Shown here piece after piece: positions 3,754-13,385 of a stretch of DNA of 13,672 bases. This DNA comes from a virus. Made by a program: the position numbers and the translations under genes. Every line of letters starts with the position of its first letter. Within the stretch, counting starts at the first letter, position 1. Location of the stretch: UHGV virus genome UHGV-0140246. One strand, written 5' to 3'. The notes under the pieces were generated by a model that was not told the DNA's origin, made no database searches, and saw only the letters and a program-made list of their open reading frames with translations.

Positions 3754-4053
3754 ATGAGAACATATTTATCTGGCTTGACTGCCAGCGGTTATGCACACCC
3801 CAAAATTATCCCCGGCGCTATTTATCTGGATAAGAACGGTAACAGAGTAACGGTAAAAGAACTGATGTTTGACCGTGTGTATTTTATTCGTGATGGCTAT
3901 TCATTTCATAGTTCGCTGAACGTGGAGATCTTTATTAGCAGATTCAGGCGGGAAATCCCGCTTTCCAGAAAAAACCATGTGTCACGTGTGAATGTGGATA
4001 AAAAACTACAGGAACTGAAAAACATGATTGCCGCGTGGAGAGAGCAGAAATGA
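3754..4053 (+). CDS. Hypothetical protein (99 aa)
   Basis: ORF whose stop overlaps the start of the primase gene (ATGA at 4050-4053). Confidence 0.55.
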   Translation: MRTYLSGLTASGYAHPKIIPGAIYLDKNGNRVTVKELMFDRVYFIRDGYSFHSSLNVEIFISRFRREIPLSRKNHVSRVNVDKKLQELKNMIAAWREQK

Positions 4054-10360: not shown

Positions 10361-10655
10361 AGCCAGAATTACACCTGATGAAGTCAGGGCACATCTTCGA
10401 CTTGATGATGATTTATCCGGTGAAGGCGAACTTCTGAAAATGTATACCGATGCGGCGCTGGAAGCCTGCCAGAAGCATATCGGGAAACGTTTTGAAGACG
10501 GGCTGGAATTTACCCCGGCAATGCGTGTTGGTTGCCTGATGTACATCGCTTTCCTGTACGAGAACCGGGAAGCGGTTTCACCAGTGGAGCACTCGGAACT
10601 GCCTATGGCTATTTCTGCGCTCTGGTCAGTTTATCGTGACGTAGGGGTGTACTGA
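10353..10655 (+). CDS. Head-tail connector protein (gp6-like)
   Basis: Internal ATG at 10353 preceded by GGGAGAAAAG; translation MIEARITPDEVRAHLRLDDDLSGEGELLKMYTDAALEACQ resembles the gp6-like connector family; overlaps the portal stop. Confidence 0.65.
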   Translation: MIEARITPDEVRAHLRLDDDLSGEGELLKMYTDAALEACQKHIGKRFEDGLEFTPAMRVGCLMYIAFLYENREAVSPVEHSELPMAISALWSVYRDVGVY

Positions 10656-11095
10656 TGCCGTGGCAACCATTAAGGCGATGCACTGAGCCTGGCTGTAATA
10701 AGCGCGTGAAGTCCGGCAAGTGTGAAGAGCACAGGCGGGCTGCATGGCGTGCAGAGGATGCCAGACGGGGACACCGCCGCGCGCGCGGGTATTCCCGACA
10801 GTGGGACAAATACCGCGCCCTGTACCTGAGCAAAAACCCGTTATGCGTGCGTTGTCTGGCTAAGGGGATTTATACGCCAGCTCTTGTGGTGGATCACATC
10901 ATTCCCATCAATGGCGGCGGTGATGTTCTCTTCTGGCCTGAGTGGAATCACCAGGCATTGTGCCAGACGTGCCACAACCGTAAGACGACACGGGAAGATC
11001 CAGCCACGAAAGCAAACCGTAAAGCGGGCATGTATCGCGAGCAGGAAGAACGGGCGGCACACCGTAACGACTGGATGTATGGCGATGATGACTGA
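10655..11095 (+). CDS. HNH endonuclease (phage packaging-associated)
   Basis: 146-aa ORF; Cys-rich N-terminus; HNH-like core DHIIPINGGG...NHQALCQTCHNRKT; located immediately upstream of the terminase genes. Confidence 0.8.
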   Translation: MPWQPLRRCTEPGCNKRVKSGKCEEHRRAAWRAEDARRGHRRARGYSRQWDKYRALYLSKNPLCVRCLAKGIYTPALVVDHIIPINGGGDVLFWPEWNHQALCQTCHNRKTTREDPATKANRKAGMYREQEERAAHRNDWMYGDDD

Positions 11096-11264
11096 ACAGG
11101 AGCAAACCAGGCTGATACGTGGACTGATAAGGCAGCGTGACACATGGAAGACACAGGAGACAGAGCACAAAGCCAACAGGACAGGGCGCACAAAACGCAC
11201 CACAGCGAAGCGATTAACCGACCGTGACCGCGAGGTCATGGAATGTTTTCGCAATCGCTGGTGA
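11079..11264 (+). CDS. Possible small basic protein overlapping the HNH 3' end in another frame; existence uncertain
   Basis: ORF from ATG 11079 (alternative ATGs at 11085 and 11088) encoding MAMMTEQEQTRLIRGLIRQRDTWKTQETEHKANRTGRTKRTTAKRLTDRDREVMECFRNRW; no clear Shine-Dalgarno. Confidence 0.3.
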   Translation: MAMMTEQEQTRLIRGLIRQRDTWKTQETEHKANRTGRTKRTTAKRLTDRDREVMECFRNRW

Positions 11265-11383
11265 GGCCGTCAGAGGGGGTGGGGGTGGTTTTCAGGACGA
11301 AACCGTCCCTGCCGGACACCGACCGCCCCCTCAAATTTTTGTGCACGGTAATTTTTTTGAAAATAATTGGGCGAAAAAAGAAC
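11265..11383. other. Candidate cos/packaging-signal region between the HNH gene and terS
   Basis: G-runs CAGAGGGGGTGGGGGTGG (11271-11288); nested inverted repeats GAGGGGG (11273-11279) / CCCCCTC (11326-11332) and GGACG / CGTCC (11295-11308); followed by AT-rich T-tracts 11336-11357. Confidence 0.4.
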
Positions 11384-11740
11384 ATGGCAAGACCACCAAA
11401 AGCCCCCGCTTACCTGGATGAAATCGCGGTCAGGCAGTGGAAGGAAAAATCGCGCCAGCTTTCCGGGCGGGAAGACCTTACCCCCGCCGACTGGAGCAAT
11501 CTGGAACTGTATTGCGTTAACTACTCCATATACCGCAAAGCCGTCGAAGACCTTGCGACGCGCGGGTTCAGCATTGTTAACAGTCAGGGCAGCGAGAGCA
11601 GAAACCCCGCCCTGAGCGCAAAGGCTGACGCAGAAAGAATAATGATCAAAATGGCTTCTTTGCTGGGTTTTGACCCGGTAAGCCGCCGCAGAAATCCACC
11701 GGAAACAGAGGAAGAGGACGAGCTTGACTGCCTGGCATGA
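11384..11740 (+). CDS. terS: Terminase small subunit, P27 family-like
   Basis: Internal ATG at 11384; N-terminus MARPPKAPAYLDEIAVRQWKE matches what I recall of P27-family TerS; about 118 aa; the ORF is open from 11243 but that part overlaps the cos-like region. Confidence 0.7.
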   Translation: MARPPKAPAYLDEIAVRQWKEKSRQLSGREDLTPADWSNLELYCVNYSIYRKAVEDLATRGFSIVNSQGSESRNPALSAKADAERIMIKMASLLGFDPVSRRRNPPETEEEDELDCLA

Positions 11741-13385
11741 GTACGCAGAAGGCGTAAAAAACGGCAAAATTACGGCCTGTAAACGACTGAAACAGGCCGT
11801 TAAACGGTATTTTTCTGACCTTGAAAACCCCCTTTACACGTTCGATCCGGAGGTCGTTGAGCGGTTTATTGCCTTTTCCAGGGTGTGTCCGCACGTAAAA
11901 GGCGCAATGCGTGGTAGCCCCATTGAGCTGGAGCCGTGGCAGCAGTTCGCCTTTGCGTGCATCCTGGGCTTTAAGGTTAAGGCCACCGGACGGCGCAAAT
12001 ACACCAGCGCATTCATTGAAGTACCGCGAAAAAATGCCAAATCCACGGTCGCCGCTATCCTGGCTAACTGGTTTCTGGTTATGGAAAACGGGCAGCAGGA
12101 TATTTACACCGCCGCCGTGAGTCGTGATCAGGCGCGGATCGTGTTTGATGATGCGCGTCAGATGTGCCTTTTATCCCGACCGTTACGAAAGCGGGTAAAT
12201 ATTCAGGCACACAAGGTGATACACCCGAAAACCAACAGCCTGTTAAAGCCACTGGCAGCAAAAGCAGCAACCATTGAAGGTACAAACCCGAGTCTTGCCA
12301 TTGTGGATGAATATCACCTGCACCCTGACAACGGGGTTTATTCCGCGCTTGAACTGGGAATGGGGGCACGCCCAGAGGGGCTGTTATTTGCCATCACCAC
12401 ATCGGGGAGCAACGTTGTTTCAGCCTGTAAACAACACTACGACTATTGCTGCCAGATACTGGATGGTGAAGAGGTGAACGAATCCATGTTCGTGCTGATT
12501 TATGAGCTGGATGATGAAAGCGAGGTTGACGATCCGGCGATGTGGATAAAGGCGAATCCCAATATCGATGTTTCCGTAGATCGTGAAAAACTGGCCTCAA
12601 CCATCCAGAAAGCGCGGGGTATTCCGTCGCAGTGGGTGGAAATGCTCACCAAGCGATTCAATATCTGGTGTCAGGGGGCTACGCCGTGGATGGGTAACGG
12701 TGCATGGGCTGAGTGCGCCGGAACGTTCACGGAGGAAGATTTACACGGTCAGGAGTGTTACGCGGGGCTTGATTTATCATCCACAAGCGACATCTCCAGC
12801 GTGTGCTATGCCTTTCCGGTTGGTAAAACCATTATGCTGGTTTCTCGTCACTATCTGCCGGAATTTCAGCTACAGAACCCCGCCAATAAAAACCGCGCCA
12901 TCTATCGCCAGTGGGCAAAGGCGGGCTGGATACGCACAACACCGGGTGACTGCATTGATTATGACCGTATCCGTGATGACATCATGCTGGATGCAGAGAA
13001 TTTCAATATCAGGCTGGTGGGCTTTGATACGTGGAACGCCACGCACCTGAGAACGCAGTTACAGGGGGCAGGCTTTGAGGTGGAGCCGTTCCCTCAAACC
13101 TACCTTCGTTTCAGTCCGGCGGCGAAATCGTTCGAGGTTTTTGTTAACCGGAAGGTGATTGTGCATCGTGGTGATCCTGTGCTGGCCTGGTCAATGAGTA
13201 ATGTTGTGATGCAGAGTGACGCGAACGCCAATATCAAGCCGAACAAGAAAAAATCATCCAACAAGATAGACCCGAGCGTTGCGGCGCTGATGGCGTTTGG
13301 CACATTCCAGGCTGAGCATGAGGAATTTGCATTTGATATGAGCGACAGCCAGAAAGAGCGACTAGCGGCGTTTGATGGGGTATGA
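11724..13385 (+). CDS. terL: Terminase large subunit; apparent TTG start at 11724 with GAGGA Shine-Dalgarno 5 nt upstream
   Basis: 553-aa ORF overlapping the terS 3' end by 17 nt; first in-frame ATG lies about 60 codons further in; size and position after terS fit a large terminase. Confidence 0.8.
   Translation: MTAWHEYAEGVKNGKITACKRLKQAVKRYFSDLENPLYTFDPEVVERFIAFSRVCPHVKGAMRGSPIELEPWQQFAFACILGFKVKATGRRKYTSAFIEVPRKNAKSTVAAILANWFLVMENGQQDIYTAAVSRDQARIVFDDARQMCLLSRPLRKRVNIQAHKVIHPKTNSLLKPLAAKAATIEGTNPSLAIVDEYHLHPDNGVYSALELGMGARPEGLLFAITTSGSNVVSACKQHYDYCCQILDGEEVNESMFVLIYELDDESEVDDPAMWIKANPNIDVSVDREKLASTIQKARGIPSQWVEMLTKRFNIWCQGATPWMGNGAWAECAGTFTEEDLHGQECYAGLDLSSTSDISSVCYAFPVGKTIMLVSRHYLPEFQLQNPANKNRAIYRQWAKAGWIRTTPGDCIDYDRIRDDIMLDAENFNIRLVGFDTWNATHLRTQLQGAGFEVEPFPQTYLRFSPAAKSFEVFVNRKVIVHRGDPVLAWSMSNVVMQSDANANIKPNKKKSSNKIDPSVAALMAFGTFQAEHEEFAFDMSDSQKERLAAFDGV

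Follow-up and report, generated by a model that had tools for sequence, protein, structure and literature searches.

A predicted HK97-type cos site upstream of the small terminase gene in a capsid-forming PICI of Escherichia coli

The stretch of DNA analysed here (UHGV virus genome UHGV-0140246, 13,672 nucleotides; called the window) is a capsid-forming PICI (cf-PICI) of Escherichia coli, as judged by its gene set and gene order. Positions 11275–11366 very probably constitute the cos site of this island, which is built like that of phage HK97 and whose ends are assigned from relatives. The exact nick positions that we assign, 11319/11320 and 11329/11330, are likely ones. A candidate cos site between the HNH gene and terS had been proposed in the initial annotation, and this proposal is supported by an HK97-type set of HNH, terS and terL genes, a conserved element, a match to the HK97 cos and the ends of relatives, which fall at the site.

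The genes of the window run in the order capsid, protease, portal, connector, HNH, small open reading frame (ORF), terS (P27 family) and terL, as confirmed by Pfam, and this gene set and order defines cf-PICIs (bioRxiv 10.1101/2022.09.08.507074). The packaging module (10600–12000) is 100% identical to the chromosomes of several E. coli strains and is present in 517 of 5426 complete E. coli genomes. For example, the island carrying this module in strain APEC37 sits between cspD/yljB and clpS and encodes, in order, an integrase, a D5-type primase, the major capsid protein, a prohead protease, a portal, a head–tail connector, an HNH endonuclease, a small hypothetical ORF, the P27-family small terminase, the large terminase and a further small ORF. 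No tail or lysis genes appear in the gene list of the APEC37 island. The genes surrounding the site in the window are as follows.

10655–11095, plus strand: HNH endonuclease gene, packaging accessory nuclease (Pfam PF01844, E = 8.8e-10; phrog_144, E = 3.6e-45)
11085–11264, plus strand: small conserved ORF of 59 aa (phrog_3173, unknown function, E = 5.6e-27)
11384–11740, plus strand: terS, P27-family small terminase of 118 aa (PF05119, E = 1.6e-23; phrog_83, E = 6.4e-38)
11724–13385, plus strand: terL, large terminase with ATPase plus nuclease (PF03354, PF20441)

The HNH protein of the island shares 36% identity with HK97 gp74 (E = 6e-17), and its TerL shares 28% identity with HK97 gp2 (E = 2e-48). 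The 59-aa ORF begins before the HNH gene has ended, has no Pfam match and is annotated by RefSeq as a hypothetical protein in a locus whose packaging module is 100% identical to that of the window. Its product ends in ...ECFRNRW, and a similar ...ECFRNR end is found in the E. coli-type and Klebsiella-type relatives that were viewed. According to the cf-PICI preprint, transfer drops severely when a hypothetical gene, 1792, is lost.

Despite the complete identity of their packaging modules, the islands of the window and of APEC37 differ at least in the leftmost part of the window, where positions 1–200 have no exact match in the APEC37 locus. This mismatch suggests that the integration end and the packaging module are mosaic with respect to each other. 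The APEC37 island also has a gene-free right arm of 1.3 kb (17073–18424) that lies beyond the end of the window. It carries a 118-nt direct repeat (17423–17540 and 17857–17974, 96.6% identical), a weak second cos-like sequence at 17760–17826 (nhmmer E = 9e-4) that has a G-block and cut region and no T7 tract, and an HK97-like stretch of G-run and T-run near 18049–18120. These repeats and cos-like stretches may represent additional packaging signals or what is left of other satellites. A 25-nt match between 3969–3993 and 18400–18424 of the APEC37 locus looks like attL and attR.

The interval that contains the site spans 119 nt (11265–11383), from the stop codon of the 59-aa ORF, which terminates one base before it, to the terS ATG at 11384. 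Thus, the coordinates given in the initial annotation are right, whereas the gene directly upstream is the 59-aa ORF rather than the HNH gene. The G-runs, T-tracts and nested inverted repeats noticed there are all present. The G-runs form the sequence GGGGGTGGGGGTGG at 11275–11288, and the T-tracts are T5 at 11336–11340 and T7 at 11352–11358, with an additional A6 at 11375–11380. The outer inverted repeat pairs GAGGGGGTGG (11273–11282) with CCGCCCCCTC (11323–11332) and is complementary at 9 of 10 positions, a nested pair is formed by GGTG (11284–11287) and CACC (11317–11320), and an inner hairpin joins CAGGACG (11293–11299) to CGT.CCTG (11304–11311).

This 119-nt interval occurs in 534 of 5426 complete E. 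coli genomes (roughly 10%), always on the chromosome and in at most five copies per genome. It is never annotated in those 534 genomes, and the site itself is without RefSeq annotation. The version carried by O157:H7 genomes is 83% identical to that of the window and has T6 and GAAAAATAA where the window has T7 and GAAAATAA.

To define the conserved part, relatives were collected by a TerS protein search with one genome per species, which gave 71 loci, and the 57 distinct element sequences among them were aligned. The loci derive from Klebsiella, Citrobacter, Enterobacter, Kosakonia, Serratia, Erwinia, Rahnella, Xenorhabdus, Photorhabdus, Aeromonas, Gilliamella, Frischella, Haemophilus and Rodentibacter. 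An element of about 95 nt is present upstream of terS in nearly all 71 loci and aligns almost without gaps, with the consensus GGGGTGGGGG, approximately 36 variable nucleotides and then ACCGCCCNCCYCCTCAAATTTTTACGCACGGYRATTTTTTTGAAAATAA. Projected onto the window, it has the following parts.

11275–11288, no strand assigned: conserved G-block (GGGGGTGGGGGTGG; family core GGGGTGGGGG), roughly 45–55 bp upstream of the predicted cut
11289–11315, no strand assigned: variable spacer of near-constant length, with a mean pairwise identity of 53%, holding the non-conserved inner hairpin (11293–11311)
11320–11329, plus strand: predicted 10-nt 3′ cohesive end CGACCGCCCC, placed by the ends of a relative's contig and by the HK97 nick, which aligns to the same position
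11330–11343, plus strand: conserved start of the packaged left end (CTCAAATTTTTGTG), with AATTTT invariant in the 57 sequences; the relative's contig begins CTCAAATTTTT
11344–11358, plus strand: predicted small-terminase binding site (CACGGTAATTTTTTT), at +15 to +29 from the cut, with a position and a G-plus-A-tract make-up as in HK97
11359–11366, plus strand: conserved GAAAATAA, the 3′ edge of the element, nearly invariant in the 57 sequences

Conservation of the primary sequence across the 57 distinct sequences is far beyond chance. Mean pairwise identity reaches 84% in a 52-column core, compared with 75% in the first 330 nt of terS, 77% in the G-block and 53% in the spacer. Positions G13–G16 of the alignment, within the G-block, are invariant, as are five T columns in the T-tract of the predicted TerS site (T84–T88 of the first sequence). 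In Xenorhabdus hominickii, the G-block upstream of terS is expanded to five tandem GGGGTA units, which suggests a short GGGGT repeat as the possible unit of recognition.

The element does not code for protein. Among relatives, the number of nucleotides between it and the terS ATG varies and is not limited to multiples of three; its core falls in frames 0, 1 and 2 relative to terS in 13, 23 and 20 sequences, respectively, and just 8 of 56 sequences have a terS frame that stays open across the element. Many automated calls nonetheless give a 165-aa TerS that starts at the ATG at 11243 (11243–11740 of the window, plus strand) and reads through the cos site. Given the scatter of the element over three frames and a terS frame that rarely stays open, these calls are gene-caller artefacts whose reading frame is not conserved; the 118-aa TerS called by RefSeq is the conserved form.

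The initial annotation had also raised the possibility that the inverted repeats serve as a terminator for the HNH transcript. In this case, they would form an intrinsic terminator, or an attenuator, that ends the transcript of HNH and the small ORF before terS. A G+C-rich stem can indeed form between 11273–11282 and 11323–11332, followed by AAA and then T5, and a consensus scan returns one weak 5-bp candidate at 11267–11282. However, the AAA separates the T-run from the stem, and the stem encloses approximately 40 nt, which departs from the pattern of intrinsic (Rho-independent) terminators, wherein a short G+C-rich hairpin abuts a U-run and the structure is conserved. As a fold, the interval is unremarkable: its RNA has a minimum free energy of −48.5 kcal/mol (z = −1.68), which is within the range of shuffled sequences, 11 of 200 of which fold equally well.

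Evolutionary evidence also argues against a structured RNA. The 57 sequences exhibit no covariation, with shuffles scoring at least as high in 450–500 of 500 cases on four of five measures and in 305 of 500 on the fifth. RNAalifold retains five G–C or G–U pairs worth −3.05 kcal/mol, none of them compensatory. For the inner helix, just 27.8% of the cells in the alignment are paired, and the 72% reached by the outer helix is due solely to an invariant G-run lying opposite an invariant C-run. No Rfam match at E ≤ 1 is found on either strand of 11150–11500. What is conserved is sequence, which reaches 35 nt past the stem and exceeds the conservation of the flanking gene. Expression is moreover required of terS and terL, which follow directly in the same operon. 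The lack of a conserved RNA structure argues against a terminator, which we consider very unlikely, and speaks for a site on double-stranded DNA, recognized by proteins through its sequence. The nested inverted repeats are not the functional core of the element, and the inner one lies in the variable spacer.

The HK97 genome offers a direct comparison. Its record is linear, with terS at the left end and the HNH gene at the right end, and thus cos lies between HNH and terS; the ends read ...CAGGGCAGGGGGGGGGATCAAATCTTCAAAACCTTTGCCCCAAATGACCGCCGCCAAA on the right and GTTTGAATTTAACGCTAACCCGATTTTTTTAG... on the left. HK97 DNA carries a 10-nt 3′ overhang, and the HNH protein gp74 stimulates cutting (PMC9410871, PMC11331095). 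The HK97 TerS site has been mapped to +15 to +29 from the cut and depends on a G and an A-tract (PMC11331095). HK106 and HK446 are the helpers reported for the prototype cf-PICI EcCIEDL933. The terS DNA of both is identical to that of HK97 (Hendrixvirinae), and the HK97 cos is therefore the relevant helper comparison. ST64B was set aside as a second comparator, given that its record is circular and uninformative on ends.

When a profile of the cf-PICI element was searched with nhmmer against both strands of the circularized HK97 genome, the best match was the mapped cos junction itself, over 79 collinear nucleotides (E = 0.0082, 11.5 bits; significant but weak). Only 1 of 3000 dinucleotide-preserving shuffles of the HK97 junction reached this score. 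The alignment puts the HK97 top-strand cut just 5′ of CTCAAATTTTT in the window, between 11329 and 11330.

The two sites share a common plan. Each lies between an HNH gene and terS, with the 59-aa ORF intervening in the island, and in each an upstream G-run is followed by a C-rich cut region and an A-tract site, after which comes terS. G-run and T7 are 65 nt apart in HK97 and 63–66 nt apart in the island, the island would share the 10-nt 3′ overhang, and the HNH (gp74) and TerL (gp2) proteins are homologous. The sites differ in the overhang (CGACCGCCCC in the island and CGCCGCCAAA in HK97), in the bases of the TerS site (CACGGTAATTTTTTT versus CTAACCCGATTTTTT) and in TerS itself. The island TerS belongs to PF05119 (P27 family) and has no detectable sequence similarity to gp1, and gp1 does not match PF05119; transfer of the TerS binding site from HK97 to the island is thus an analogy. 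An AlphaFold model of the island TerS (pLDDT 60) is too poor for a fold comparison with gp1, Foldseek returns no PDB entry at E ≤ 0.001, and a sequence search of the PDB finds nothing.

Physical ends at the predicted bases are present in a relative. The IMG/VR entry IMGVR_UViG_3300022664_000095, a single linear metagenome contig of 15,518 nt that is roughly 77% identical to the window, begins exactly CTCAAATTTTTACGCACGG and ends ...CAGGACAAAACCCAAGCCGCAAGGCAC. BLAST places its base 1 at window position 11330, and extrapolation of the last aligned block places its final base at 11319. Integrated relatives carry 10 nt, CACCCGCCCC, between these two ends. The top-strand cut had been predicted from HK97 before the start of this contig was seen, and the two agree. 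The absence of exactly 10 nt is what end-polishing of a 10-nt 3′ overhang would give, whereas with a 5′ overhang those 10 nt would occur twice, once at each end of the contig, and we infer the 3′ polarity from this difference.

A second set of ends comes from vB_KppS-Ant (GenBank LR881103.1), a 16.5-kb cf-PICI of K. pneumoniae DSM 30104 sequenced from phage-lysate DNA with Nextera XT. This record ends ...GGGGTGGGGGAGGTTTTCAGGAC and begins ACGAAAAGG...ATG, the last being the terS start codon, and integrated copies have 69 nt more between these ends, corresponding approximately to 11299–11367 of the window. Tagmentation of a linear molecule is expected to lose the last tens of bases at each end. 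The packaged DNA of the DSM 30104 island is reported to form concatemers through cohesive ends (preprint 10.1101/2025.02.11.637232).

The paper on vB_KppS-Ant describes a filamentous single-stranded DNA induced prophage, and the gene content of the record is that of a cf-PICI: capsid, protease, portal, an HNH homologue that the record calls hypothetical, terS, terL, integrase and primase. The annotation of one ORF beyond terL as a tape measure protein seems doubtful. A further record, PQ569648.1 (‘Klebsiella phage P12620-1’, 106,503 bp), is labelled a complete genome and looks chimeric. Its final 15.9 kb or so (90,644–106,503) consists of a cos-permuted cf-PICI that runs from terS to the small ORF, with an abrupt junction to unrelated DNA at the second terS codon. 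The cf-PICI segment is likewise broken in the interval between HNH/small ORF and terS.

Scans of 48 E. coli-type IMG/VR contigs and a further 56 from metagenomes gave no additional end at the site; every one of them carries it internally and appears to be an integrated copy. One sequence that starts 18 nt upstream of the G-block was taken as a random break, and Salmonella phage As1 (16.5 kb) proved to be a fragment of an ST64B-like phage rather than a cf-PICI.

The HK97 match and the contig ends also bear on the proposal that the A/T-rich conserved part serves chiefly as promoter or operator of terS–terL and that the assembly ends are artefacts. By eye, TTGTGC (11339–11344) and AATAAT (11362–11367), separated by a 17-nt spacer, do resemble a sigma-70 promoter. 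However, a scan finds no promoter on the plus strand here, and the −10-like hexamer is specific to the window, since the family consensus is AAATAA/AATAAA, without the final T. A promoter would furthermore leave the G-block, the C-block and the constant spacing unexplained, together with the match to the HK97 cos and a contig that lacks exactly 10 nt at the predicted nicks, and we judge this proposal to be highly improbable. It is scarcely credible that the region instead serves headful packaging as a pac site: pac phages, too, have TerS-proximal recognition sites, but the ends of contig 3300022664_000095 are precise with a 10-nt gap, HNH-dependent terminases are a cos-type system (Kala 2014, as represented in papers that cite it), cohesive-end concatemers are reported for a related cf-PICI (10.1101/2025.02.11.637232) and TerL is homologous to HK97 gp2.

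If the region is a cos site, packaging might proceed as follows. After induction, the island would excise and replicate, and its TerS would bind the A-tract site just downstream of the cut, at approximately 11344–11358. TerL and HNH would then nick the top strand at 11329/11330 and the bottom strand at 11319/11320, leaving the 10-nt 3′ end CGACCGCCCC, and the ligated junction would read ...GGACAC-CGACCGCCCC-CTCAAATT... DNA would enter island-made capsids from the terS side, and entry would stop at the next cos. By analogy, the invariant T-tract at the predicted TerS site fits the DNA-bending requirement described for HK97. The G-block (11275–11288) would also be part of the site, where it may be recognized by the terminase or by HNH or, judging from its position, may act in termination or in positioning the nuclease.

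The initial annotation held that the sequence of the site determines whether the terminase packages only island DNA. This claim needs to be divided. The element is almost unchanged across cf-PICIs of many genera, and thus it can separate island from helper and probably does not separate one cf-PICI from another. Packaging of island and helper is mutually exclusive (bioRxiv 10.1101/2022.09.08.507074), and the differences from HK97 in the overhang, the TerS site and TerS are candidates that could account for this exclusion. The overhang bases vary by lineage, with CGAACGCCTC in the O157:H7 type and CACCCGCCCC in the Klebsiella type.

Much more tentatively, the module of roughly 95 bp, made up of G-block, fixed spacer, cut region and A-tract site, might be one packaging signal, almost unchanged and common to cf-PICIs from Enterobacterales to Pasteurellaceae, with an ancestor shared with the HK97 cos and a different TerS family, a proposition that we hold to be possible rather than probable. 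If true, island and helper packaging would be kept apart by a handful of TerS-site and overhang bases, one cf-PICI could package another, cf-PICIs could move any DNA with the short module on it, and the G-block would act in termination much as cosQ does in lambda.

Satellites of the cf-PICI type are widespread, build capsids of their own and package nothing but themselves. Given the cos sequence and the likely cuts, it becomes possible to test which bases separate island packaging from HK97-type packaging, whether cf-PICIs package one another and what minimal DNA is sufficient for plasmid mobilization. The element also provides a compact sequence signature for finding cf-PICIs, and it corrects the annotation in which terS is read through the site.

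A cos site is an expected feature of this known satellite family, and what the analysis adds is the nucleotide-level model, the deep conservation and the kinship to the cos of the helper. The island resembles the described cf-PICIs EcCIEDL933 and KpCIDSM30104 (Alqurainy et al. 2022 and He et al. 2025, preprints) in its gene order and its island-encoded hnh–terS–terL, and the element itself is present in O157:H7 genomes (83% identity) and in the island of K. pneumoniae DSM 30104. According to the main texts of these preprints, the islands package by cos and require hnh, terS and terL. The cos sequence and ends are absent from those main texts, and journal versions or supplements may already give the sequence. 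For EcCIEDL933, the earlier preprint describes transfer as abolished in all packaging-module mutants except that of one hypothetical gene (bioRxiv 10.1101/2022.09.08.507074).

Two more distant systems place the site in context. SaPIbov5 carries the cos of its helper and uses the helper's terminase, whereas the island described here has its own terminase and a cos that has diverged from that of the helper. In the staphylococcal cos phages and SaPIbov5, as Quiles-Puchalt reportedly described in 2014, cos adjoins the HNH gene and terS, and cutting is said to need HNH, TerS and TerL. The cos of phage lambda has a 5′ overhang and works with no HNH protein. Its three-part layout (cosQ–cosN–cosB) is nevertheless suggested in the island by the upstream element, the nick region and the downstream TerS site, with a cosQ-like role of the G-block in termination being an analogy drawn from its position.
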